The translations under genes were made by a program, and so were the position numbers. A stretch of DNA of 64,000 nt, from the NCBI GenBank assembly GCA_019056785.1, contig DXJV01000100.1, forward strand, positions 4,993 through 68,992, read 5' to 3'. This document shows, piece by piece, positions 2,024 to 47,411 of the stretch (the stretch's first letter is position 1; every line of letters begins with the position of its first letter). Origin of the DNA: Candidatus Heimdallarchaeota archaeon (GTDB lineage: Archaea > Asgardarchaeota > Heimdallarchaeia > JABLTI01). The notes below the pieces were generated by a model that had not been told where the DNA came from, ran no database searches, and saw only the letters and a list, made by a program, of their open reading frames with translations.

Positions 2024-2163
2024 TGGTGGACCGAGCGAGATTTGAATTCGCGGAAGGAGGGACTCATCCCATACTTCGCTCGCGGCCTTCGGAAGGTCTG
2101 TCGGAAGGTCCGCAACCTTTTCGATTGCAAATCCGACGTTCTACCAGTCTGAACTATCGGCCC
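2024..2163 (-). tRNA. tRNA-Ala(UGC) with two introns, CCA encoded
   Basis: Reverse complement folds as GGGCCGA/TCGGTCC acceptor with the G3:U70 Ala identity pair, D arm GTTC..GAAC, anticodon stem TCGGA/TCCGA with loop TTTGCAA, T arm GCGAG-TTCAAAT-CTCGC, then ACCA. The gene is 140 nt against ~77 nt mature. Inferred introns lie at ~2094..2124 (anticodon loop) and ~2047..2078 (between T-stem and T-loop, 53/54). Junctions are uncertain by 1-2 nt. Confidence 0.8.
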
Positions 2164-30924: not shown

Positions 30925-32229
30925 ATGACTGAAGTCGAATATGATGTTATAATTGTTGGTGCTGGTTGTGCAGGACCCGCTGCAGCAAAGAAAGCAGCAG
31001 AATTAGGACTGAAAACGCTCCTTTTAGAAAAATCCCGAACGCCTGGAGAGAAAAATGTTTCGGGGACATGTCTAAACATGGCGGCGCTTGTTGATCCTGA
31101 TTTACATTATCTTATGAAAGGTCCTGTTGAAAGGGAAATTACCGAAATGCATTCGTATATGATTACGCCAGAGCGAACGACGATGTTTCGTGAAACCCCG
31201 AGTGAAGGGTTGATTCTTTTATCGATTCGCCGCGACCACTTCGATGCCTGGCACACGGAAGAAGCTCGCAAAGCCGGTGCAGAGGTCCGCTTAGCAACGA
31301 CAGTAGTGGATATCATTGAAGAGAATGATGCGATAAAGGGCGTCATTACTGATAAAGGCGAGAAACTTCGAGCAAAAGTGATTATTGATGCTGCCGGCGT
31401 GAATTCCATTGTTGGCCGAAAAGCAGGGCTTATTCCCAAGCGCAAAGGAACGGATATGATTCTCTATGTTACGGTGAATGTTCATCTTGGTGAGAAACTG
31501 GTCACCGAACGTTTTGGCAACTCCATTTACTATTTCCTTGCCCCACAGACTCAATACAAGACTTGGCCATGGGCATTTCCAAAGAAAGACGTTGTCACTT
31601 TCGGCACAGGTGGCTATCTGGATGACAACCTCTTCAAAGATGGCATAAACTCTGTCAACGACTATATGCAGAACCTTTTGGATCTGCCCGTTATTAAAGA
31701 GAAAATAAAAGGGGGAAAAATTGCCTCTTGGGGCTTGCACCTCGAGTTTGATGAGGCATTGGAGCGGCGAACACGTGATGGATTAATCCTCACCGGTGAA
31801 GCAGGGGGATTTGTGATTCCTTTCTTGGGCGAAGGAATGGTCGAAGCCTTCTTGACAGGCATTTATGCTGCCCAAACCGCAGCTAAAGCCATCGAAGCGA
31901 ACGATGTTTCAGCAGCATTTCTAGAAGAACATTTTATGGAATACTATACAGGCAATGTTTTCTTGCAAAGCTTCCGCTATGTAGCTGACTTTAATAAGAA
32001 ATCCATTCTCTCTATGCCTGACGAAGAAATCGCAGCAATGATGCAAAATGTCTGCATTGGTGGTGGCTTTATCAGTAACGCAATTCATTACAACTGGATG
32101 AAAGGCGCAGACGAAGACGATATGAGTTTGGTCCAAGAGGCCAAAGATTTCTATGAATTTATCCAGCCATATCGACAAGTTGGTTCGGAATCAGTAGAAA
32201 TTTATAAAAAAATGAGGGCTGAAAAATGA
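30925..32229 (+). CDS. fixC: FAD-dependent oxidoreductase FixC (ETF-quinone oxidoreductase-like)
   Basis: YDVIIVGAGCAGPAAA...LLLEK dinucleotide fold; ~430 aa; overlaps the downstream FixX-type ferredoxin by 4 nt. Confidence 0.8.
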   Translation: MTEVEYDVIIVGAGCAGPAAAKKAAELGLKTLLLEKSRTPGEKNVSGTCLNMAALVDPDLHYLMKGPVEREITEMHSYMITPERTTMFRETPSEGLILLSIRRDHFDAWHTEEARKAGAEVRLATTVVDIIEENDAIKGVITDKGEKLRAKVIIDAAGVNSIVGRKAGLIPKRKGTDMILYVTVNVHLGEKLVTERFGNSIYYFLAPQTQYKTWPWAFPKKDVVTFGTGGYLDDNLFKDGINSVNDYMQNLLDLPVIKEKIKGGKIASWGLHLEFDEALERRTRDGLILTGEAGGFVIPFLGEGMVEAFLTGIYAAQTAAKAIEANDVSAAFLEEHFMEYYTGNVFLQSFRYVADFNKKSILSMPDEEIAAMMQNVCIGGGFISNAIHYNWMKGADEDDMSLVQEAKDFYEFIQPYRQVGSESVEIYKKMRAEK

Positions 32230-32486
32230 AGGTCGAAATGAAAGTTGACTATTATCCCGGCGACCCCGGAGAGTTTGTGCGAGTCGATGAAAGCAAATGT
32301 ACCGGTTGTGGCGAATGCGCCAAATTCTGTACACGAAATGTATGGGTACAAGATGGCAAGATCTTTCGCCCAAAGAACTTGAAAGCATGTGTCGAATGTG
32401 GTGCTTGCTGGAATGTTTGTGAGTTTGACGCAGTCATTTTTGAAGAACCAAAAGGAGGAACTGGTGTAAGATTTGAATATGGATAG
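32226..32486 (+). CDS. fixX: ferredoxin-like protein FixX
   Basis: CTGCGECAKFC...CVECGACWNVCEFDAVIFEEPKGGTGVRFEYG; 86 aa. Confidence 0.8.
   Translation: MKVEMKVDYYPGDPGEFVRVDESKCTGCGECAKFCTRNVWVQDGKIFRPKNLKACVECGACWNVCEFDAVIFEEPKGGTGVRFEYG
32400..32486 (+). repeat. direct repeat copy 1 (functional fixX 3' end, AT-rich codons)
   Basis: The first 23 nt are identical to 34876..34898. By hand alignment ~15 mismatches in 87 nt, mostly synonymous. Confidence 0.8.
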
Positions 32487-32502
32487 AGTTTCCTATCCAT
32501 TT

Positions 32503-32865
32503 CTATTTTACTAATTCTCCTTTGAATGCTTTGTGAAGAATGGATTGTTTAAGTTCTTTAATATTTTCAGCCGCTTTAGTGGATTTTTCTAATATTTATT
32601 TTTTCTTTTCAAAAATAGTGTCAAAAAATAATACTAAATTTTTTTGTTGGTTTTTATCAATTACATCATCTATTGTAGGCAGAGGTATTTTCATCGACTT
32701 TAAATTATTCTGAGCTATACCTCCTTGTGTTGAACCATGAAATTTGTTTGCAAATTGATCTTGACCAAGATATGAAAATAAAACGTAAGAAGCATAATGT
32801 TTTGATTTTAACACAAAGTAGGAAAGATCTTCCGGTAGACGTACAAGGAATGTTAGTTGAGCATT
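32503..32865 (-). pseudogene. hsdS: type I restriction-modification specificity subunit (HsdS) remnant with in-frame stop
   Basis: Hand translation gives ...YASYVLFSYLGQDQFANKFHGSTQGGIAQNNLKSMKIPLPTIDD...FEKKK*ILEKSTKAAENIKELKQSILHKAFKGELVK*. This is the end of a target-recognition domain plus the conserved HsdS C-terminal helix, interrupted by TAA at 32596..32598. Only about half of a normal HsdS is present. Confidence 0.6.
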
Positions 32866-32951
32866 TTAATATTGATGATCCATATAATGATATTTATACA
32901 AAAGTAAAAAAATTGGTTAAAAGGTATAAGTGAGAAACAGACATTAGATTC

Positions 32952-33793
32952 CTAGGAGATATTTAACATTATTTTAATTTTCTCTAATCTACTTTTATCT
33001 TTGATGAAATAATCGAATACCTTTTCAATAGAAATAAATCTTATTTGCGGAAAATCATTCTTTTTAAATTTCTCAGTTTCCTTTGGTGCAAAGAAAAATA
33101 AAATTGTATCATTATTAGATATTGAATCCTGTAAAGATTGTAATTTATTAATTATTGTTTTTTTATTTTCTGCAAAAGTTACTTGAGCACAGATTCTGAT
33201 ATTTTCTTTATTTAAACCATAAATATCAAAATCTTTCTGCCCCCTTCCAATAGGTTGAAGAAGAAATTCTATTTCTTCTTTGCTTTTTAAAATTCATAAC
33301 AGATAATTTCTAATTGTTCGGGAGAAAGCGATTTAACTTCTAAAGGTAATTCTTTTTCATAATAGAAATATCTCAAAACTTTAGATACTTTTGACCACTC
33401 TTTTATAGTTCCCCTAGGTTGACTGGATTGGAAGATAGGATAATCCATAAAAGAAACTTCTCTAAAACTACTTAATTGCATTGTTTTAAGTTTATATTCA
33501 TTCTTTTTCAAACAACCTATTTTTGTACCTTTTGTGATTTTACCTACAAGTATAGCATCTTTTCTTATTCGTCTAAAATCAGCAGCGACTATAGCACCTT
33601 CTTTTGACATTTTGTGCATCAAATCAAATGCAAATTTTACTTCTCTAAAATTTTTTTTATATTTGTTAGGATTTGTGCTACATATATTCTCATAATGAAT
33701 TGCTATTTTTTTTTCATCCCATAATTTTTCAAGTAAATCTTTTGGAACTGAGATATTGTGTCTTATAAAAACTATAATTTCCTCTTTGTCCAT
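32952..33793 (-). pseudogene. frameshift-disrupted gene, C-terminal part PD-(D/E)xK/Mrr-like
   Basis: The 168-aa ORF ends ...LSPEQLEIICYEF*. A 111-codon frame with no start codon opens in the -1 frame exactly at that stop (ILKSKEEIEFLLQPIGRGQKDFDIYGLNKENIRICAQVTF...). The junction lies in a TTTTAAAAA run. Confidence 0.5.
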
Positions 33794-33798
33794 AATAT

Positions 33799-34056
33799 CT
33801 AATCGATTTTTCTACATTTAAAATATTTATCATCAAAAAGTAAAGCGCCTTCCCCACGATCTGTTCTACCAAGAAAAATCTCATAATCGAATTCTACAAG
33901 ATAAGGATAATCCATTATTGTTGGAAATTCTTTTTGATATTTAACAATAAAAGATTTCAAAAGTGTTTCATCATCAACGGGTCCTTGAACTCTGCACCAA
34001 ATTTCTTTTCTAACATGTTTATCATAAATAGCTAATTGCTTGTTTTTTATCATCAA
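33799..34056 (-). CDS. hypothetical protein (island)
   Basis: 85-aa ORF, 5 nt upstream of the next minus-strand gene; no motif recognised. Confidence 0.35.
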   Translation of the reverse strand: MMIKNKQLAIYDKHVRKEIWCRVQGPVDDETLLKSFIVKYQKEFPTIMDYPYLVEFDYEIFLGRTDRGEGALLFDDKYFKCRKID

Positions 34057-34164
34057 ATCATTTCCTTAAGAAAAAAATTATGATTGATATTAAGCTCTCA
34101 ATCCACCACTAAATTTCGCTTCAAAAAGTTTTTTACTTATTTTGAATCCTTAGTTTGAAGGCCA

Positions 34165-34620
34165 TCATGTAATGGCTTGAAATTTGACCGGCTGTTTTTT
34201 GAGCAATAGTCCAGATAACCCAATCAAAACGATCCTTACAAGCAGGATCATACACCGAAAAAGAAGGAAAAGTAAAGATAGGATAAGAGAAAAAAGAGTA
34301 ATTTTTGGGTTACGAGTAAAATAAAGACCTATGACTTTACCGGCAGGATAAGGAACAAGAAAAGTATGCTTGTGAGTGGTTACATCTGGCATATCAAACA
34401 TTAATTTAGACATTTCAAAATAAATATCTGTTAAAGGATTATGTATAATAAGCTGTTTTTGATGTAAAGAAGAATTCTTGAAACTATTTCGATAGAATTG
34501 TTTAATGAACTCATGAGTTAATTTTTCTCGACCAATAGTCTTAGCTTCTTCAGTTGAAGAAATAATACTAGTAATTATTTCAGAAACTTGAGCAGTAAAA
34601 AAAAGAGATTGCTGAATCAA
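34165..34620 (-). CDS. hypothetical protein with C-terminal TM segments (island)
   Basis: 151-aa ORF with a hydrophobic C-terminal third. Confidence 0.35.
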   Translation of the reverse strand: MIQQSLFFTAQVSEIITSIISSTEEAKTIGREKLTHEFIKQFYRNSFKNSSLHQKQLIIHNPLTDIYFEMSKLMFDMPDVTTHKHTFLVPYPAGKVIGLYFTRNPKITLFSLILSLLFLLFRCMILLVRIVLIGLSGLLLKKQPVKFQAIT

Positions 34621-34875
34621 TAAGTTGAACTAAATCAGAAGATTTCATAGTAAATACATCCCTATACCAAAAGAATAACCTCAGAGGAAAAAATAATGGT
34701 TGCGAGAGGAAAAAAAGGAACTCTTCTCAGAAAAAGAAAACAGATGAGAAGAGAAGAAGGAAAAAGGATAAAAAGGAGAAAAAAGAACATAAAAACATCA
34801 ATGCAACAAAAAGAAAAACGCTTCTCAAATGAGAAGAGAAGGAGAAGATTCCAAATGAAGAAAGAAAACCTGTAC

Positions 34876-34962
34876 GGTGCTTGCTGGAATGTTTGTGAAT
34901 TTGACGCCGTCATTTTCGAAGAACCGAAAGGCCGTACCGGTGTTCGCTTTACTTATGGTTAG
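34876..34962 (+). repeat. direct repeat copy 2 (displaced fixX 3' remnant)
   Basis: Encodes GACWNVCEFDAVIFEEPKGRTGVRFTYG* with GC-richer codons. It keeps operon spacing: a GGAGG sits between its stop and the ATG of the SCP2 gene 12 nt downstream. Confidence 0.8.
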
Positions 34963-40295: not shown

Positions 40296-41246
40296 CTATT
40301 CCTTCTCTTTTTTCTGTTTCTTTTTTTTGCATTCATTTTTGAATTTCTTCCGCAGATCTTGTAATTGCTGACGGATGTCTTCTTGTGGTCGGCTCCCTTT
40401 TAGCCCTAAAATGCTTTTATCCTTAATTGCCAGTAAGACAGAGATCAATCGCAAGTCTCCAAGACCGGTGATTGATGCATATCCGCGATCTGCCACAACA
40501 ATACAAAGCTCTTTACTTACTTTACAGCCATTCTCAGGGTTAATGATTTCGGCGATGACTTTGTTCTTTTCAAGGTTCACCCGGAACTGTATCCCATTCA
40601 ATGTTTCGATCACTTCATGCCGGTCATTAATTGTAAAGCCTATTTTCCGAACAATCTCTTCGGTAGTCTTCAAGTTAAAACCAACAGGTAAGTATTCTGT
40701 TGTAGGTTTCTCGAGGACGATTTCTTTGGCACACTCTCTAAAGAGTTCCATCAAGTCTTCTGGCTCGCGCCACTCGCGAAGTGAAAAATGCCGGATATTC
40801 AATTCTGTGAAGAGTTTCTGGAACTTGTTTTTTAATCGTGTTCGTGCTTGTTTACTTTTAAACGGAGGGACAAGAATTATGAATTCGTAGAGTGCGTTCA
40901 ATTTATCTATCGTTAACTCGATTATTTCTCGAACAAAATCAACGCTCCCCCCCTTCCCCTCACACATAAACAGATATTTACGCGCACCAAGATAATAGTT
41001 AGGCATTATCGTCCGATGAATAATGTTATTAAAAGAAGTAATCCATATTTGAAGGTTCATTTCTCCCTCGGGGGTCCGTGTTTTGAACACCACAGGATCG
41101 ATGCCGATAATTTCCATGAGGTTGCTGAGGTGATGACTCGTTACCTCACGGACAGCTTTATGAAATTTTGTTTGCAAGTCTGTCGGTTCAAGTGTTAAAA
41201 CTATCTTCGCTAAAAATCGAGGCATGACTTTCCCTGCTTTTTTCAT
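40296..41246 (-). CDS. Ras-like pseudo-GTPase (degenerate G motifs) with C-terminal extra domain and basic tail
   Basis: LQIWITSFNNIIHRTIMPNYYLGARKYLFMCEG aligns by eye with Rab LQIWDTAGQERF...YYRGA...DVT. The P-loop position reads IVLTLEPTDLQTK and no NKxD is present. Confidence 0.45.
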   Translation of the reverse strand: MKKAGKVMPRFLAKIVLTLEPTDLQTKFHKAVREVTSHHLSNLMEIIGIDPVVFKTRTPEGEMNLQIWITSFNNIIHRTIMPNYYLGARKYLFMCEGKGGSVDFVREIIELTIDKLNALYEFIILVPPFKSKQARTRLKNKFQKLFTELNIRHFSLREWREPEDLMELFRECAKEIVLEKPTTEYLPVGFNLKTTEEIVRKIGFTINDRHEVIETLNGIQFRVNLEKNKVIAEIINPENGCKVSKELCIVVADRGYASITGLGDLRLISVLLAIKDKSILGLKGSRPQEDIRQQLQDLRKKFKNECKKKKQKKEKE

Positions 41247-41568
41247 TCGTTTTGTATGTCAAAAAGATTCGTCTTTATTTAATATATCTTTTTTCAATTG
41301 TACCTTCAAGAATTCTCAAGAAAATACCATGGCTTCAATCAGTACTACGACTATCAAATAAACAAAATGAAAAAATAGACAGCCGGCCCAAAAAGAAGAT
41401 AAACGAGTTCTTTTTTCTTTCTCACCTTCCATAAAAAAGGGAAGGCTTCTTTAAGAGCATTTTTAGTTGCTCTTTTCTTCTTACAAAAGCTTACTAAACA
41501 ACGCTTCTAGCAGAAGGAAAAAATTAAGCTTTAAATAAGAGCTTTCCCCATACATTTCTGGAAAAATT

Positions 41569-42906
41569 GTGGTGGGTGTTATGTTTAAGACAAAAAGATT
41601 GTTAATAGTGATCTTTACTGTTTTAATATTGAGCCAAACCCCTTATAGTTTGGCTGAAAATCCTTCAACAATTATTAGCTATGAGGGAACGAAAGCTTGG
41701 GAAATGCCACAACAACTTTTTCCCAGTAATTCTCTTTTATTTGTGAAAAACCCACAAATACTTTCAAATGAACAGGGTAAGCAAGTCGCTCTGTGGATAG
41801 CTTATAACGAAACGTACTCTGAAATCCATTGTCAGACATTTACCGGAGAAAGCTGGCTTCTGAACAACACTATTTTTATTATTTCTGGTAATTATACACA
41901 AATCTCAACATTCAAAGCTGTCTTGGACAGTGAGAACAAACTACATGTCGTTTGGAAGGATGCGGGGGTCCATTATCGCTCTTTATGGAATAATGTTCTT
42001 TCTCTTGTAATCGATCTTCAGGATATGTACCCCACTTTTGATCTGGCTCTTCTCTCTTCGAATCGTCTCGCTTTGGTTGGTCAGGAAGAGAACAATTTAG
42101 TCTATCTCATTTTTGATGGTAATAGTTGGAGCGAAAGTACGACCATTATTAATTTCGATGACTTGGAGGTCCCATATTATATTCATACTTTGGACCTTGC
42201 AGCCGGAACAAATGATAATCTCTTTGTTTGTTGTACGGGTTCAAAATATGACCCAATAGAAGAAAGATCTGTAGAAATACTGCTTTGCTTATTCTATGAT
42301 GGAACAACTTGGCAAAGAACCTCAGAACCATCAGTAGAAAAACCGTACATTGGAAAGGTTACTTTTGATGAGACCGGAAAAGTGCATCTCTTTTATACCT
42401 CATTTAATTCGGGGAATGTTCTTTGGCATCAAGTTTGGCTGAACAAATGGAGCAAAGTTGAAAAGGCCGTCGAATTTCCCCAGGACAATACGGAGAGGCA
42501 TTGGAGTAGTATTATAAACCACGATGTTGCCATTTCAGGTTCAGACATCTTTATTGCTATGGCAGCAACAGAGTGGACAACCATCGGATTTAATCTCGAT
42601 CTGCTCATCGCACACTATCGGAGCGGTTGGCAGTGGGAGCCAATTTTTGATGATGATGACTCTTATATCTATGAAACGTCTATTGCTATCAACAAAAATG
42701 GTGATGTTTTCTTGCTGGCTATTGAGAATTTTACTCCGAACAACTTTACCTGTGCAGACCTCATTTTTCTCTATGGTGAAAAACTATTCAACTATAAATC
42801 ATCACATAGTATTGGCTTCAATCTTCCAACAACGATCCTTCTTTCCTCAGTAACAGTAGCAATGTTTGTATTAATAAGGCGAAGGAAGAACAGACAAAAC
42901 CTCTAA
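41569..42906 (+). CDS. secreted repeat protein (beta-propeller-like) with C-terminal TM anchor
   Basis: N-terminal signal/TM; recurring ~50-aa units each with a conserved W (ESW, NSWSES, TTWQRT, NKWSKV); C-terminal TM plus RRRKNR. Confidence 0.5.
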   Translation: MVGVMFKTKRLLIVIFTVLILSQTPYSLAENPSTIISYEGTKAWEMPQQLFPSNSLLFVKNPQILSNEQGKQVALWIAYNETYSEIHCQTFTGESWLLNNTIFIISGNYTQISTFKAVLDSENKLHVVWKDAGVHYRSLWNNVLSLVIDLQDMYPTFDLALLSSNRLALVGQEENNLVYLIFDGNSWSESTTIINFDDLEVPYYIHTLDLAAGTNDNLFVCCTGSKYDPIEERSVEILLCLFYDGTTWQRTSEPSVEKPYIGKVTFDETGKVHLFYTSFNSGNVLWHQVWLNKWSKVEKAVEFPQDNTERHWSSIINHDVAISGSDIFIAMAATEWTTIGFNLDLLIAHYRSGWQWEPIFDDDDSYIYETSIAINKNGDVFLLAIENFTPNNFTCADLIFLYGEKLFNYKSSHSIGFNLPTTILLSSVTVAMFVLIRRRKNRQNL

Positions 42907-42986
42907 ATTTCTTCCTTTTTTTGAATTTTCAAATAAAAATCCATAGTTTTATAAATTCATTCACAGCAATTTACCATAGGTCTATT

Positions 42987-43009
42987 GGACGTGTGGCTTA
43001 GTTTGGATA
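42987..43009 (+). other. tRNA 5' fragment (acceptor strand plus D-stem 5' strand and D-loop)
   Basis: GGACGTG-TG-GCTT-AGTTTGGATA. The acceptor strand is perfectly complementary to CACGTCC at 46193..46199. tRNA similarity ends at about position 21/22. Confidence 0.45.
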
Positions 43010-43141
43010 GATGTTTTTGAAAAGAAAAATCCTAACTTGAAAAAATTTGTTCATAACATTAGCAATTATAATTATTTGATTATAATGATTATCATGAGCT
43101 AAATTATCCAAAAAATAAATAAAAAAGTGTAAGAAAGTATT

Positions 43142-43576
43142 TTACTCTTTTATAGTTCCTTCTTCTTTTGCTTTTTCAATCAAAGGTAGTAAATCCATTG
43201 TTGGGATCATTGGCGCATATTGTCCCCAGGTCCACTTATCTTTTTTGTTGCGAATCTTACCTATAATATAGTAACCAAAACGATAACTATCTTTGAATTT
43301 ATATTTCGCTATTTGGTCCTTCTCACCTTCTGATTTTTGGTGTTCTAAACGTAAAATTTCAAACACTTTTTCAGGGTTATCGGTTTCTGTCATGTAAGTA
43401 GCAGCAACCACTTTCAAGAAATGGTGTCCTTTTCGAGAAATATCTTTGACTTTGATCAATCGCCCTATTTCTTTTTGCTTTTTCCTTTCAATAAATTCTT
43501 CGGCTGTTTCAGCCACAATTATCACCGTAGGTAAAATAATTCTTAGATTAATAAAAATTATGTTACCAGAAATCAC
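43142..43576 (-). CDS. hypothetical protein (island 2)
   Basis: 144-aa ORF (GTG start in the track) ending ...RFGYYIIGKIRNKKDKWTWGQYAPMIPTMDLLPLIEKAKEEG. An in-frame upstream mini-ORF MNDRKGRTKSRRANRTK is separated from it by one TAA. Confidence 0.4.
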   Translation of the reverse strand: MISGNIIFINLRIILPTVIIVAETAEEFIERKKQKEIGRLIKVKDISRKGHHFLKVVAATYMTETDNPEKVFEILRLEHQKSEGEKDQIAKYKFKDSYRFGYYIIGKIRNKKDKWTWGQYAPMIPTMDLLPLIEKAKEEGTIKE

Positions 43577-43995
43577 AATTAATTTAAAATAATCAGTTAT
43601 TCGGTATTTTTATTTTGTTCTATTTGCTCTTCGGCTTTTTGTTCTTCCTTTACGATCATTCATCAGTTGGGAATATTCTCAGTCAGATTTTTTTAATTTG
43701 TATTTTTATATTTACAAAATTCAAGAGAATACCCACAAATAAATAGAACTCGAAAAGTTTGAATAATTCCTTGAAAATCATTTTCATCTGTTATTTGTAG
43801 TATTTCATCTATTTGTTTCAAAGTATATTGGTTGTTACATTTATCAGTCAAAAATTAATCACGACTTTTTATTCAATTTCTGGTACATGAAGTTATTTTA
43901 GATTGTTCGGACTTAACGTCTTTGGAGCAGACTCGCGTCGTTTCTATTCATCATCCAAGGTTCACAACGCTTCTTGTGTGAAGTTATTGATTCTC

Positions 43996-44163
43996 TCATT
44001 TATTATTCATTTTTTTACAAATAAAGGAACTGTTTTCATAGGTGATGCCTATCGTATCGCCTTTTTTAATTCCCATCGCATTTACTATCTCAATTGGTAT
44101 GGAGAGTTTGTATACTCCTGCATTATAAATTACTTTTCGTTCAAAAACTATTTTTCCTGACAT
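43996..44163 (-). CDS. AbrB/MazE/SpoVT-type DNA-binding protein (55 aa)
   Basis: Hand translation gives MSGKIVFERKVIYNAGVYKLSIPIEIVNAMGIKKGDTIGITYENSSFICKKMNNK, with the looped-hinge-helix signature (lsIP.eiv.alglkkGD.v). Below the ORF-track size cutoff. Divergent from the 577-aa gene. Confidence 0.6.
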   Translation of the reverse strand: MSGKIVFERKVIYNAGVYKLSIPIEIVNAMGIKKGDTIGITYENSSFICKKMNNK

Positions 44164-44194
44164 ATGCTTTTTCCCTATCTTTTCTTCTTGTGCA

Positions 44195-44235
44195 GAATAT
44201 TTAAATATTATCGTTTCTATACATAATATGTATAG
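44195..44235. promoter_or_regulatory. divergent promoter region with two perfect palindromes
   Basis: AATATTTAAATATT (44195..44208, TATA-like) and CTATACAT-AAT-ATGTATAG (44217..44235) lie between the AbrB-like gene and the 577-aa gene. Confidence 0.3.
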
Positions 44236-44252
44236 TTTATGTACGGTAAATT

Positions 44253-45986
44253 ATGATGCTCAATCTATTATTCAGACAAGAAAAAAAACAAAGAGGTTCA
44301 AAAACAATTATTTATAGAAATGGCACCATATTGTTGAAAAGCAAAACATCAAAATATGGAATGAACATTCCTAGTGGTTTATACAGGTGGAAAAAATTAC
44401 CAAAAAAGAAAAGTGATGATAAATTAAAAGTAGTTGTTGATTTTTGGCATAAAAAAAACAAATTCGAAAGTGTACTTTGTATCATTTACCATAATAATTA
44501 CTCTTGTTATTTACGACCTGTAAATAATAAAAATCAAGAACAAAATATTTTACAACTTATGAAAAAGAATGCTATTTTAAAATGTGTAATCCCAAATAAA
44601 GTAAGTAAAGATGAACAGATTCCATCAACCGATTATTTAAAGCAAGCATTATTTTTAGCAGAGCAAGTTGTTTTACCTAACATTGATACCTTACAATTAG
44701 TTACTTTTGGCAGAATGCAAAATACAAAATACGAAATTTATTCAGATAATGAAATGAATCTTTACTTAAAATGCCGTGGTAAAATAAGTAGAAAGGGCGT
44801 TTTAATTTTATCTTCAGAAATTTCCCGTTATATACAAAATTGGTTTGAGAAAGAAATTTTATGTTTGTGTTCAATAAATGCTAAACCACCAATAGTTTTA
44901 ACTTTAACAACTCGCAAGAGAAACTCCACAAAAAAAATTTACAAAGAATTAAACCTTCCCTACTATGGAGATCCAAAAGAAGGAATAGTATATTTTACAT
45001 CCAATGGTTTAGAATTAACTAAACAAGCAAGAAAGGACTTACAGTTGAAATCCCAACTAAGTAATAATGGTTATAATTTTCTTAATCTCAAATCTACTCT
45101 TAGACATGGGAAACATTACAACAGGGAGTTTGAACAACGAGTTAGAGATTTAATTGGTAGAGCTTTTAGAGATTACGAGGACACTATTCTTTTATCAGAA
45201 GTTGAGCTCACACTTACGGATGATGATTTTCCTTTAACTGGTTGGGATAAACATCGTTTTGATTCTTTTATTTATCATCAAGATGATTTTCATGATTATG
45301 TAGCTTTAATTGAACTAAAGACATCTATCGAGCCTTCAAATAAATGTGGAATTATCGAGAGTGCAATTGCGAAGCTCTACCAGTTTAGAAAACGCATAAA
45401 TAAAAAAACTATTGTTCCAATCCTTATTATTAATGAAGATATATATTATCAAGGGGAAATAGCCACCAAAGCGTATGGGGACTTGTGTAACGTCATTCTA
45501 ATTGGTCGAAAGGAATTAGTTGCCTTGATAGAAAACCCATCTCATCTTCATAAAAGAATACAAAACTACCTTGACACTCAAGGCTTTAAACAATCTCCCC
45601 CACCGATAAAAATGCGCGCAATCAATTCAGTATCCGAAGGTTCTGCATTTGAAGAAAAAATAAAGGACAAATTGCTAATTGAAGGTTACAAGGTCCAATC
45701 AAATGTGCTTTACAGAGTACAATCTAAACATATGGAAATTGACCATATAACAACTAAACAAGATGAGAAAATACTTGTTAGTTGTAAGGATCATAAAACA
45801 ATAACTTCTGAATGGAAAATTCTCCTAAAATTATCTGACATTTTAAACATTATAGTTCTTAGAAAAGCATTACTTGGCTTTTCACAAGCTCGATTGTATG
45901 TGAAAGTTCATCCTAAAATAAAAGACAAGATCACACAAATTCTAAATCTTAAAGAAATTTCCGAAGTGGATGTTTTTATAGAATAA
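44253..45986 (+). CDS. 577-aa protein with two PD-(D/E)xK nuclease-like modules (Mrr/restriction-endonuclease-like)
   Basis: Module 1: NREFEQRVRDLIG...HRFDSFIY...YVALIELKTS. Module 2: GSAFEEKIKDKLLIEGYKV...MEIDHITTKQDEKILVSCKDHK (Mrr_cat-like G..FE...GY...D...xCK). The N-terminal ~280 aa are unassigned. Confidence 0.5.
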   Translation: MMLNLLFRQEKKQRGSKTIIYRNGTILLKSKTSKYGMNIPSGLYRWKKLPKKKSDDKLKVVVDFWHKKNKFESVLCIIYHNNYSCYLRPVNNKNQEQNILQLMKKNAILKCVIPNKVSKDEQIPSTDYLKQALFLAEQVVLPNIDTLQLVTFGRMQNTKYEIYSDNEMNLYLKCRGKISRKGVLILSSEISRYIQNWFEKEILCLCSINAKPPIVLTLTTRKRNSTKKIYKELNLPYYGDPKEGIVYFTSNGLELTKQARKDLQLKSQLSNNGYNFLNLKSTLRHGKHYNREFEQRVRDLIGRAFRDYEDTILLSEVELTLTDDDFPLTGWDKHRFDSFIYHQDDFHDYVALIELKTSIEPSNKCGIIESAIAKLYQFRKRINKKTIVPILIINEDIYYQGEIATKAYGDLCNVILIGRKELVALIENPSHLHKRIQNYLDTQGFKQSPPPIKMRAINSVSEGSAFEEKIKDKLLIEGYKVQSNVLYRVQSKHMEIDHITTKQDEKILVSCKDHKTITSEWKILLKLSDILNIIVLRKALLGFSQARLYVKVHPKIKDKITQILNLKEISEVDVFIE

Positions 45987-45988
45987 AG

Positions 45989-46097
45989 TGGCGGGTGCGG
46001 TCAGATTCGAACTGACGACTTCCTCTAACTGGAAATCCAAGCGCACCAGGAGATCACTCCGCAGGGAGGCGCATTATCCGTGCTATACTACGCACCC
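45989..46097 (-). tRNA. tRNA-Arg(GCG) with one 31-nt intron, CCA encoded
   Basis: Reverse complement folds as GGGTGCG/CGCACCC acceptor, D arm GTAT..ATGC, anticodon stem CCTCC with loop CTGCGGA, T arm GTCAG-TTCGAAT-CTGAC, then GCCA. The intron is ~46026..46056. A perfect GGAGG 3' stem strand is obtained only if the intron lies at 39/40. Confidence 0.7.
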
Positions 46098-46179
46098 AAT
46101 CAGTAATTGGAATTGATGTTATGTCCTTTTTAAAAATATGGATTCTAATTATAAATAAATTATTTGCAAATGTTCCTTT

Positions 46180-46203
46180 GTTCGAATCCGCTCACGTCCG
46201 CCA
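46180..46203 (+). other. tRNA 3' fragment (T-loop, T-stem 3' strand, acceptor 3' strand, discriminator, CCA)
   Basis: G-TTCGAAT-CCGCT-CACGTCC-G-CCA. No matching T-stem 5' strand (AGCGG) lies upstream. The acceptor pairs with 42987..42993. Confidence 0.5.
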
Positions 46204-46217
46204 TTTTTCTTTCCCCT

Positions 46218-47411
46218 TTACTCTTTGATTTTCTTTTTTAACGGCCGATCGTTCTTTGTCCTTGGTTTATCTTGCTGTTCGAGCCATTGCAAGAGGTTTG
46301 CTTGGTCGATAATTTTTCTTGCAACTGCTTTTTGTGCTTTCGTTTTCGAAGGGCCGGTTCCAAGCTCAAAATAATTTTCGCCTTCGACTTGTAGATGAAG
46401 GAGCAGTAGCACAATTTTTTCTTTCTTCTCAGTCGCTTCCTTTTGTTTCTTCCGCTCTTTTTCGTCGAGTTCTACCAGCCATGCTGCCACGCGCAGTTGT
46501 TCTTTAAAAAGGGCGCTTAACTGTGCCAGTAAGTAGTAGGGGTTTGTTTCCCTTTTCGCCCGCGCCCACTCTACCAGCCGTTTGTTTGGGTCGAGCCTAA
46601 TTGTCAATTCCTCTCCACTGTTAATGAAATCGTTTGTTCTTAGAAAGCGTAGCTCCGTTTCCTCGAGAGAGTGCATTGGTCTGCCAGCAAATAAGATTCG
46701 TTTTGTTTCTTCTCGCCGAGCATATTCATCAGCTATTCTTTCCTGTACCTTTCCCAGTGTTCGCAACAATTTGTATGCCACATCTTGTTCGGCATCCTTT
46801 TTTTTAGCATACAAACCACTCTTCAATTTGTATGTTTTCCCGTGGTATCGCGCCAGTATGGTACACTGCCAGTTTGGTTGGTGCTCTTCCCCGAAGTTTT
46901 GCCAATCGTATGCTGGCAACGCTTCTTTTTCTTTTTGAAAAAGTTCATTCAGTTCTCCCTTCCAGTTGCGGTCAATATACTTATTCTTGTTAGCAATTTC
47001 CAATAATTGCTTGACAATTTCTTTGACTGTTTTAAACCCATTTACTTTGTAACTTGCTGCAAGAAGGGATTCAATTGCTTCCTTTATTTCATTGTCTGTT
47101 GCCTGATGGTTCGGCTTGTGGCTGTTAATTGCTTCATCTAACCCGAGCCATTGTCCAAGCAAAACAAGTGTCCGTCGCGAATGAAATGCCGTCCTCAGTT
47201 TTGTTTGTAACCCCACGTCCTTAATTTCCGGAAAGATCTCCAAAAGGGCTCTATTGAGAAGGTTGTCCCCCTCGAGTGCTAATTTTTTAAACTCCTTTGT
47301 CCCCCCGCACGATTTTGGTTTTGTTGCTTTTTCGACGAGTTCGGGGTGTTGCTCTAGTTTAAAGAATTTAACAAATGGAGGGACAGTTGAGGGATGGGGC
47401 ATGTAGTTCAC
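46218..47411 (-). CDS. RNase III-like domain protein with two dsRNA-binding-domain-like modules
   Basis: KKLALEGDNLLNRAL (compare RNase III/Mini-III LEFLGD / LAYLGD) and IKEAIESLLAASY (compare AD.FEALIGAIY). Canonical dsRBD: NWKGELNELFQKE...PAYDW...EEHQPNWQCTILARYHGKTYKLKSGLYAKKKDAEQDVAYKLL. Second partial dsRBD: HLQVEGENYFELGTGPSKTKAQKAVARKII. Confidence 0.55.
   Translation of the reverse strand: MNYMPHPSTVPPFVKFFKLEQHPELVEKATKPKSCGGTKEFKKLALEGDNLLNRALLEIFPEIKDVGLQTKLRTAFHSRRTLVLLGQWLGLDEAINSHKPNHQATDNEIKEAIESLLAASYKVNGFKTVKEIVKQLLEIANKNKYIDRNWKGELNELFQKEKEALPAYDWQNFGEEHQPNWQCTILARYHGKTYKLKSGLYAKKKDAEQDVAYKLLRTLGKVQERIADEYARREETKRILFAGRPMHSLEETELRFLRTNDFINSGEELTIRLDPNKRLVEWARAKRETNPYYLLAQLSALFKEQLRVAAWLVELDEKERKKQKEATEKKEKIVLLLLHLQVEGENYFELGTGPSKTKAQKAVARKIIDQANLLQWLEQQDKPRTKNDRPLKKKIKE

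Follow-up and report, generated by a model that had tools for sequence, protein, structure and literature searches.

What does a large nuclease-like gene do when it stands back to back with a tiny regulator-like gene and ends against a tRNA gene on an archaeal chromosome? The question arises from a 64,000-nucleotide (nt) stretch of DNA of Candidatus Heimdallarchaeota archaeon (GenBank assembly GCA_019056785.1, contig DXJV01000100.1, positions 4,993 to 68,992), hereafter called the window, in which an open reading frame (ORF) of 55 amino acids (aa) on the minus strand (43996–44163) and one of 577 aa on the plus strand (44253–45986) are divergent and 89 base pairs (bp) apart. An earlier, sequence-only reading of this locus had described the pair as a controller protein plus a solitary, possibly modification-dependent nuclease; both ORFs, and all the peptides quoted in it, were found again in the ORF list and its translations.

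We conclude, with moderate confidence, that the 577-aa gene encodes a regulated, accessory, tRNA-anchored conflict nuclease. Among its possible roles we put solitary restriction-like defence first, with a selfish, homing-type role as the main alternative. The observations behind this conclusion include a pair of conserved nuclease modules in each protein chain, signs that the gene is dispensable and has moved between lineages, and a position beside a tRNA gene at every locus with an intact family gene that we examined.

Two nuclease modules in the 577-aa protein

The 577-aa protein contains two PD-(D/E)xK modules, as had been read from the sequence. Module 1 is encoded at 45108–45602 (plus strand, residues ~286–450) and is marked by H288, E316, D337 and E354-x-K356; module 2, of the NERD/Hjc/Mrr type, is encoded at 45615–45986 (plus strand, residues ~455–577 and the stop codon) and is marked by E467, N484, E495, D497 and S510-C511-K512. 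We aligned 34 full-length members of the family, down to 24% identity with the window protein. In module 1, D337 and E354 are conserved in all 34, E316 in 33 and K356 in 28, and H288, grouped with this set, is among the invariant or near-invariant residues. In module 2, E467, N484, E495, D497 and C511 are found in every member, position 510 is S (31 members) or E (three members), and position 512 is mostly K (27 members) or R (six members). Both modules have the strand-2 acidic residue and the strand-3 (D/E/S)-x-K motif of PD-(D/E)xK nucleases.

The full-length AlphaFold model (predicted local distance difference test [pLDDT] 80.7, predicted template modelling score [pTM] 0.72) shows the alpha-beta-beta-beta-alpha-beta core order in both modules: helix 291–305, strands 311–320, 334–343 and 348–356, helix 361–382 and strand 387–393 in module 1, and helix 465–476, strands 480–489, 492–502 and 505–514, helix 520–541 and strand 545–552 in module 2. 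According to Foldseek, the best structural matches of the full-length model are the nuclease domains of Cdn1, Card1, Can2, VC1899 and AF1548 (probability 1.0). The Foldseek output is silent on which module each match covers, and the assignment of module 1 rests on its element order, its motif and weak family matches. Low-ranking matches include MspJI and FokI (template modelling [TM] score 0.13–0.15); the one to MspJI (TM 0.13, root mean square deviation [rmsd] 20 Å) is a local similarity at most.

At the level of families, module 2 matches NERD in 26 of the 34 members at E<=0.1 (best E=2.8e-8), Hjc in 10 and Mrr_cat in eight, and its profile finds AF1548 (PDB 1y88; E=4.4e-5) and Hjc resolvases (E=0.013) among PDB sequences. 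The family is NERD-related in module 2 as judged from these profile matches, and the window sequence by itself falls under the NERD threshold (PF08378; 14.5 bits, gathering cut-off 22.1). Module 1 gives weak, scattered matches to Card1_endonuc, HSDR_N and SduA_C, all of which we take to be PD-(D/E)xK-type nuclease domains. The PDB sequence search returned nothing for the full 577-aa protein or for module 1, and hhalign of module 1 against module 2 was non-significant, although the motifs fell in register. The dual PD-(D/E)xK reading holds, and both predicted sites look catalytically competent.

Three groups of known nucleases resemble parts of this protein. The NERD, Hjc and Mrr domains (PF08378, PF01870, PF04471; AF1548), found by direct profile matches, share the motif layout of module 2, in which a helix glutamate is followed by EID and then by a (S/E)-x-K strand. 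Unlike them, module 2 shares its chain with another PD-(D/E)xK module of a different kind and with the duplicated N-terminal 285 aa, which have no recognisable fold; in addition, Ser mostly takes the place of the third acidic residue, with an invariant Cys after it. The CRISPR-ancillary CARF nucleases Card1, Can2 and Cdn1 are the best structural matches to the nuclease part (rmsd 3–5 Å over 117–160 columns), give weak matches as PADLOC CARF_PDDEXK and Pfam Card1_endonuc, and share the logic of a sensor joined to a nuclease; the 577-aa protein, however, has no CARF domain and no CRISPR-Cas neighbourhood, its N-terminal part is unrelated, and it has two nuclease modules and not one. The solitary restriction enzymes FokI and MspJI likewise place recognition in the N-terminal part and cleavage in the C-terminal part, and the MspJI type works without a cognate methyltransferase. 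Yet their global fit is very poor at the TM scores given above, the 577-aa protein has no known DNA-reader domain, and neither a tRNA-anchored position nor a multi-paralogue family is a feature of those enzymes.

A duplicated N-terminal region

Residues 1–285 (44253–45107, plus strand) form two tandem beta-rich copies (1–142 and 143–285), as seen in the AlphaFold model and with hhalign. When modelled alone from 20 sequences, this region reached a pLDDT of 92.1 and a pTM of 0.85. The secondary-structure pattern repeats, and hhalign pairs residues 13–45 with 155–192 (E=3.2e-5). Using Foldseek, we obtained no meaningful match of the N-terminal model in the PDB or BFVD (TM <=0.23, rmsd mostly >10 Å). 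Modified-base readers (SRA, EVE, YTH and others) were also looked for in the N-terminal domains of the 34 members, and no match was seen by sequence or by structure; the modification dependence that had been suggested for the nuclease thus gained no support. The region appears to be a duplicated module whose fold, as modelled, has no known relatives and is possibly new, and we presume that it is the recognition or sensor part.

Two segments of this region, GMNIPSGLYRW and GVLILSSEISRY, had been read as loosely similar to AbrB-type strands. They occupy equivalent positions of the internal duplication, and we reject an AbrB-like N-terminus: a Pfam scan of the 34 members gave no match in the AbrB clan, hhalign against the 55-aa protein family gives a probability of 2.5%, and no AbrB structure was matched. 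A sub-threshold DUF7000 match in the window protein (E=0.015) occurs in only one of the 34 members and was treated as chance. Three long members (P0010, P0018 and P0032; 1034–1186 aa) have highly acidic, low-complexity N-terminal extensions of 420–490 aa, and in P0018 and P0032 a third copy of the beta-rich module can be seen by eye.

The 55-aa protein and the shared control region

The 55-aa ORF is a real gene, since orthologues with 74–78% identity hold the same position in two other genomes (L001/L002 and L004/L005; L numbers denote the related loci that we compared). The protein had been read as an AbrB/MazE-fold regulator. Its match to Pfam MazE_antitoxin (PF04014, AbrB clan) scores 24.0 bits (E=3.9e-5), 0.7 bits short of the gathering score of 24.7, and two orthologues fall just under the same threshold with 24.2 and 24.3 bits. 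It also matches TIGR02609 ('putative addiction module antidote', E=9.3e-5) and a PHROG antitoxin family, and its top PDB sequence matches are three archaeal AbrB-family regulators (E=0.07–0.09). A small DNA-binding fold of the AbrB/MazE (swapped-hairpin) type is a reasonable assignment on these profile scores, short of proof.

The 89 bp between the two genes (44164–44252) form a divergent control region, which the alignment shows to be nearly invariant among the window, L001, L004 and L014, while the encoded proteins are 66–78% identical. Within it, a 14-nt palindrome, AATATTTAAATATT (44196–44209), can be read as a TATA box in either direction, and the predicted transcription start of the 577-aa gene is covered by a second palindrome of 17 nt, TATACATAATATGTATA (44218–44234); each occurs once in the window. 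In archaea the spacing from TATA box to start is usually about 25 nt, and it is from this spacing that we infer the TATA box and the start. The conserved palindromic region fits an AbrB-type protein that represses the nuclease gene from a predicted operator, and the 55-aa protein is a lineage-specific divergent partner and probable local repressor of that gene. Both AbrB/SpoVT/MazE regulators and the controller proteins of restriction–modification systems offer parallels, in the marginal fold-family match and in the divergent placement over a conserved palindrome, the putative operator. The 55-aa protein differs from them in scoring just under the Pfam threshold and in being partnered with a single clade of the nuclease family.

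Family distribution and partner genes

A word-index search recovered only eight close relatives of the 577-aa protein, and the same eight when the alignment of 34 members served as the query; a genome-collection scan with narrow patterns gave two close loci, and an exhaustive profile search recovered 59 cluster representatives. Out of 20 representatives that we looked up, nine had source names, eight of them Candidatus Heimdallarchaeota and one Thorarchaeota; outside Heimdallarchaeia the double-nuclease family is nearly absent. One 2.26-Mb contig encodes three paralogues (585, 724 and 1037 aa), and another of 1.55 Mb at least two, probably three. Members P0003, P0011 and P0015 are encoded on contig JAHLVY010000001.1 of assembly GCA_019058195.1. 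We found no relatives of the nuclease family in IMG/VR (three queries), INPHARED phages, PLSDB plasmids or PHROGs. As the sequence-only reading had supposed, the locus does not correspond to a named system: four window proteins gave no match in PADLOC-DB 2.0 at E<=1, and the 34 family members gave weak nuclease-domain matches only (CARF_PDDEXK in two, best E=1.5e-4).

Our locus sample comprises 13 distinct loci with an intact family gene, two truncated remnants and several duplicate contigs. Only the window and the two orthologue groups nearest to its nuclease (L001/L002/L014 and L004/L005/L013) have the 55-aa gene; L006, with an intact orthologue of 65% identity, lacks it, as do all more distant loci examined. 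At L003, L007, L008/L009, L015, L016/L017 and L018 the divergent neighbour is instead a protein of ~540 aa with a double LAGLIDADG and a helix-turn-helix (HTH) domain (incomplete in L007, where the contig ends, and just 314 aa long in L015). It has two canonical LAGLIDADG motifs (…GVVNGDGHL… and …WRGAMDADGSYK…, with GDGH and DADGS), an HTH_3 domain and LAGLIDADG_3 scores of 28–33 bits (cut-off 22.5).

The region between the LAGLIDADG-HTH and nuclease genes is conserved in alignments even where the nucleases share ~28% identity (L003 7840–8000, L007 750–922, L008 1457–1618, L015 1300–1469, L016 9802–10000, L018 1716–1885 and L006 6306–6469). Its conserved blocks, TTCTTAAATACCTCTTTGAAAA.CTGTACA and TTTCGGTAA.CTC..TA.AAAATAGCTATATAT, are common to cassettes next to tRNA-Arg and to tRNA-Phe, and may be binding sites of the LAGLIDADG-HTH protein. 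L006 retains this ancestral type of promoter without the partner gene. Because other lineages have the LAGLIDADG-HTH partner and its promoter, which is left over even in L006, the AbrB gene, together with the 89-bp control region, arose later as a replacement within a single clade. The controller arrangement proposed for the window is therefore retained as far as a divergent small gene sharing a conserved palindromic promoter region goes, but the AbrB gene accompanies only the three closest orthologue groups, and an AbrB–nuclease pair as a conserved unit has to be given up.

Other conflict-type genes are found in the neighbourhoods of the family. In L023 (1–4556), the gene for an 801-aa member, extended by ~220 aa at its N-terminus, overlaps with the end of the preceding gene on the same strand, which encodes a HerA-like P-loop ATPase (DUF87 32.4 bits, HerA_C 26 bits), and the two look like a helicase–nuclease operon. 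A weak HEPN match and clusters of PDDEXK_1 and helicase/phosphoesterase genes were also seen in these neighbourhoods. The absence of an adjacent methyltransferase gene, noted before from the sequence, was borne out: no methyltransferase family was matched among the four scanned neighbours (43142–43576, 41569–42906, 40296–41246 and 46218–47411) or in the gene tables of related loci.

Adjacency to tRNA genes

The 577-aa gene is convergent with a tRNA-Arg(GCG) gene with a 31-nt intron (45989–46097, minus strand), whose 3' end is 3 nt from the stop codon. This tRNA is missed by ARAGORN with default settings and by Rfam on the whole window; it scores 41.8 bits when Rfam is applied to the local segment, and ARAGORN places it at these coordinates once introns are permitted. 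In all 13 distinct intact-gene loci, without exception, the family gene lies 2–58 nt from a gene for tRNA-Arg, tRNA-Phe or tRNA-Val, depending on the subfamily. At eight intact loci, with L006 and its decayed tRNA copy counted besides, the Arg-type gene (36–100% identical to that of the window) stops 2–8 nt short of a tRNA-Arg(GCG) gene that converges on it and has an intron of 31 nt. The Phe-type genes, made up of a ~28%-identical subfamily (L015–L018) and the 801-aa member of L023, account for four loci and end ~15–30 nt from a convergent tRNA-Phe(GAA) gene. The member at L026 lies 58 nt upstream of a co-directional, intron-less tRNA-Val(CAC) gene. The sample behind this rule spans three tRNA identities across four subfamilies. 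The window has three tRNA genes per 64 kb; as a rough estimate, and not as a calculated statistic, we put the chance that a given gene end falls so close to a tRNA gene at a few percent at most, and the coincidence for three independent identities at less than about 1e-4.

The tRNA gene, and not the AbrB gene, is the most conserved feature of the family loci. The tRNA had previously been taken as a mark of an island, which was right about the adjacency and understated how constant the tRNA is. At L006 (8201–8474) the nuclease gene is directly followed by a decayed tRNA-Arg(GCG) gene that lacks its first ~18 nt and has acceptor-stem mutations, and an intact tRNA-Arg(GCG) gene with a different intron and T-arm stands on the opposite strand 166 nt beyond it; here the anchor tRNA looks to have been replaced by a second copy.

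Elements of Heimdallarchaeum are known to integrate at tRNA genes (PMC8813620), and genomic islands with integrases are associated with tRNA genes (Williams 2002, as cited in PMC8813620). The loci studied here resemble such islands in that the nuclease gene holds the tRNA-proximal place usual for the integrase, with one tRNA identity per subfamily, several paralogues per genome, decayed copies and variable genes beyond. They differ in having no recombinase and no direct repeat of the 3' part of the tRNA at the loci tested, and in a variable segment that spans ~5 kb at most within syntenic flanks. The gene tables of the window neighbours and related loci list no tyrosine or serine recombinase family, and no tRNA-derived repeat of 14 nt or longer was found in the window or in eleven related loci; a classical integrase-type island is therefore unsupported.

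The tRNA-Phe(GAA) genes beside family members are polymorphic in their introns (L015 3240–3425, L016 11735–11880, L018 3650–3770 and L023 4585–4745). Of the four, all except L023 have a D-loop intron, all except L018 have an anticodon-loop intron, and only L015 and L023 have a T-arm intron.

Dispensability and exchange of the nuclease gene

The window is archaeal DNA with a GC content of ~40%, which falls to 27–33% in the interval of 43–46 kb; the 55-aa and 577-aa genes are 29.8% GC, as compared to 40.2% for the rest of the window. Family genes have 25–31% GC and are under the GC of their flanks at every locus.

One natural variant of the window locus, L021, lacks 2,585 bp (43266–45850). In a blastn comparison, L021 and the window share 99.5% identity as far as 43265 and 95.8% from 45851 onwards, and the two matched segments overlap by 4 nt at the junction. 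The deletion takes the 5' part of a 144-aa ORF (43142–43576, minus strand), the 55-aa gene, the control region and codons 1–533 of the 577-aa gene, and leaves the last 44 codons of the latter (within a 53-aa ORF) and the tail of the 144-aa ORF. A second truncation arose independently in L020, a close relative of L008, where only the C-terminal 135 aa are left beside the tRNA. The tRNA genes are intact in both variants. The 144-aa ORF, located in the low-GC segment, has no assigned function: no family match was found for it in the profile and PHROGs scans, and no homologue in the other loci; it is only a possible part of the nuclease module.

The wider neighbourhood is syntenic in L001, L004, L006, L007 and L014, where YdjM, HAD and ferredoxin–flavodoxin genes lie to one side of the nuclease locus and the genes of a 316-aa and a 451-aa protein to the opposite side; relative to these loci, the segment from small gene through nuclease gene to tRNA, at the least, is inverted in the window. 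For the flanking 316-aa protein, L004 and L014 are nearer to L007 (56% identity) than to the window (49%). For the nuclease, the window and L004 share 67.5% identity as against 39.7% between L004 and L007. The window tRNA allele and its intron are of the L007/L008 type and not of the L001/L004 type. Taken together, the deletions, the low GC, the identities discordant with the flanks and the tRNA allele type indicate that the nuclease gene was replaced at a fixed site, with a recombination boundary at the gene–tRNA junction.

The 577-aa gene is accessory and is exchanged between lineages, and these data exclude an essential housekeeping role as well as an obligatory two-gene AbrB–nuclease system. 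The earlier description of a tRNA-adjacent, AT-rich, accessory region accordingly agrees with the tRNA-Arg found, the base composition, the deletion in a near-identical strain and the discordant phylogeny. A missing CTCGAG site had been counted as a further sign of foreign origin; there is indeed none in 40711–46661, but by our composition-based estimate only ~0.2 sites are expected per 3 kb at 30% GC, and the absence is uninformative.

Candidate roles of the nuclease

We propose that the 577-aa protein would act as a metal-dependent DNA endonuclease with two complete PD-(D/E)xK sites per chain, so that a single molecule or a dimer could cut both strands. Its duplicated N-terminal beta-rich module would be coupled to the nuclease modules, presumably for target recognition or sensing, and a compact divergent promoter would drive its expression. 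Repression of the nuclease in the window genome and its two nearest relatives most likely comes from the 55-aa protein, bound to the palindrome that covers the predicted start of transcription; elsewhere this task probably falls to the LAGLIDADG-HTH protein, which has a conserved control region of its own. The most likely role would be the cutting of foreign DNA by a solitary restriction-like defence nuclease. That DNA is the substrate, that the small protein represses and that the role is defence are points that we infer from these features.

Several observations weigh against the defence role. No member matches a known defence system beyond the weak nuclease-domain similarity seen with PADLOC, and the hallmarks of a restriction system, such as a methyltransferase or a modified-base reader, are missing. 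Strict tRNA adjacency and the fidelity of each subfamily to its tRNA are atypical of ordinary defence genes, and a site-specific selfish element fits them better. The ancestral partner retains both LAGLIDADG motifs in canonical form, like active homing endonucleases. In the closest clade the nuclease is 66% identical, as compared to 45–56% for the housekeeping-looking neighbours, and this better conservation argues against rapid arms-race evolution there. Nuclease activity and operator binding, moreover, are predictions made from sequence.

The main alternative, which we regard as a tentative possibility, is a selfish cassette of the homing type. Here the nuclease, alone or with its LAGLIDADG-HTH partner, would cut cassette-free alleles at or beside the cognate tRNA gene, and repair from a cassette-bearing copy would carry the cassette and adjoining tRNA sequence into the same site. 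Only this model accounts for the strict tRNA anchoring, with one tRNA identity per subfamily at all loci examined, together with the intact LAGLIDADG partner and the truncated remnants, which always retain their tRNA-proximal end, as a cycle of invasion and decay would give. Allelic replacement at one fixed site, with a gene tree that conflicts with the flank tree and an anomalous GC in the window, points in the same direction, as do a tRNA allele type that does not track the nuclease phylogeny, several paralogues per genome and the lack of any tyrosine or serine recombinase or att repeat that would otherwise explain the site specificity.

There is also a precedent in the free-standing endonuclease SegB of phage T4, encoded among tRNA genes (PMC2330249). 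In both cases a nuclease gene lies beside tRNA genes, is inherited in a block and varies in presence among relatives. SegB, however, is a small GIY-YIG phage enzyme, whereas the protein described here is a 577-aa double PD-(D/E)xK nuclease on an archaeal chromosome, for which cleavage of the tRNA region is hypothetical. Further difficulties for homing are that no cassette-free 'empty site' allele is among the loci seen (the two variants without the gene, L020 and L021, are untidy deletions), that two nuclease modules and a 285-aa domain are far larger than typical homing endonucleases, and that no relatives occur in the viral, plasmid or phage collections. Co-conversion should also move gene and tRNA allele together, but a clade-1 gene is paired with a type-A tRNA in the window.

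It is unlikely, in our judgement, that the whole cassette (regulator or LAGLIDADG-HTH gene, control region and nuclease gene) is an unrecognised tRNA-anchored selfish element of Heimdallarchaeia that holds or regains its place beside a particular tRNA gene by nuclease-triggered gene conversion, with no recombinase. If it were, the adjoining DNA would be churned, with variable genes on one side and a tRNA gene with short introns on the other, and there would be a DNA-level route to the gain and loss of archaeal tRNA introns and to the formation of islands at tRNA genes without an integrase.

A controller (C-protein-like) regulator acting with a solitary, modification-dependent, type IV-like restriction nuclease, close to what the sequence-only reading proposed, is improbable. 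It would explain the divergent small DNA-binding protein with its conserved palindromic putative operator and the lack of a methyltransferase nearby, and the modification-dependent MspJI is among the Foldseek matches; but that match has the poor TM and rmsd given above, the N-terminal domains match no modified-base reader such as SRA, EVE or YTH, and the AbrB partner is lineage-specific.

Very improbable is a housekeeping function, either as an Hjc-like junction resolvase or repair nuclease or as a factor whose target would be the adjacent tRNA or its intron. In its favour are the Hjc matches of module 2, the conserved surroundings on the chromosomes of related genomes and the presence of introns in the adjacent tRNA genes, with intron content varying among the Phe genes. 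Against this stand the deletion or truncation of the gene in two natural variants with intact tRNA genes, a restricted, multi-paralogue distribution, the low GC and the discordant phylogeny. The tRNA splicing endonuclease has the catalytic triad Tyr-His-Lys. We rejected a relation to it because the catalytic residues are of the metal-dependent E/D/ExK type, the deletions spare the tRNA genes and the tRNA-Val neighbour is intron-less.

An addiction pair, in which an AbrB/MazE-like antitoxin would neutralise a nuclease toxin through direct binding, is implausible even though the best matches of the small protein are MazE_antitoxin, TIGR02609 and a PHROG antitoxin family, because the genes are divergent and not co-transcribed as in type II modules, a 577-aa multidomain toxin would be atypical, the small gene is missing beside most family members (including the intact 65%-identical orthologue), and a protein of 55 aa could hardly accommodate, beyond the DNA-binding fold, the tail with which MazE-type antitoxins bind their toxin.

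The defence reading, which we continue to put first, bears on a lineage of particular interest, as Heimdallarchaeia are the closest known archaeal relatives of eukaryotes. Fewer recognisable defence systems are reported from them than from other Asgard groups (PMC11291487). A nuclease family that is specific to this lineage, has several paralogues per genome and possesses a possibly new N-terminal fold would be a concrete candidate for part of this missing repertoire. If the nuclease itself maintains its place beside the tRNA, it would represent a new mechanism of site-specific persistence and would bear on the turnover of archaeal tRNA introns. In practical terms, the locus offers a compact nuclease with two active sites and an unassigned recognition module, together with a defined putative repressor–operator pair. 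The catalytic domains belong to a well-known superfamily; the architecture (a duplicated module joined to two different PD-(D/E)xK modules), the near-confinement to Heimdallarchaeia, the partnership with a LAGLIDADG-HTH protein and the tRNA anchoring appear to be undescribed in the literature that we searched.

Other genes near the anchor tRNAs and in the window

Two further proteins encoded next to anchor tRNAs have nuclease-like motifs by eye and no significant Pfam match. One, of 420 aa (L008 3650–4912, L010 2276–3538 and L020 4622–5899), has a zinc-ribbon-like CPxC pair and the segment ...DFIITTSKGKNILLECKV..., and the other, of 523 aa (L026 2107–3675), has the C-terminal end ...GEQIDILGIDKKSISVYECKL.

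Directly across tRNA-Arg in the window, a 397-aa protein (46218–47411, minus strand) has an RNase III-like domain (TIGR02191, E=4.3e-21, under its cut-off) and a dsRNA-binding motif (Pfam dsrm, 34.6 bits, E=2.8e-8), followed by a lysine/glutamate-rich C-terminal extension of ~180 aa. RNase III is rare in archaea; a 404-aa orthologue of this protein is encoded in L021.

A second intron-containing tRNA gene of the window (2027–2163, minus strand, 137 nt; Rfam tRNA 42.6 bits) is absent from both the default and the intron-aware whole-window ARAGORN output. At ~32490–34960 the window contains a ~2.4-kb low-GC (27–32%) insertion with three small ORFs without assignment. The insertion is bordered by a duplicated 3' end of an 86-aa ferredoxin-like gene (ACWNVCEFDAVIFEEPKGGTGVRFEYG in 32226–32486 and ACWNVCEFDAVIFEEPKGRTGVRFTYG at the end of 34696–34962) and looks like a small integrated element with a target duplication.

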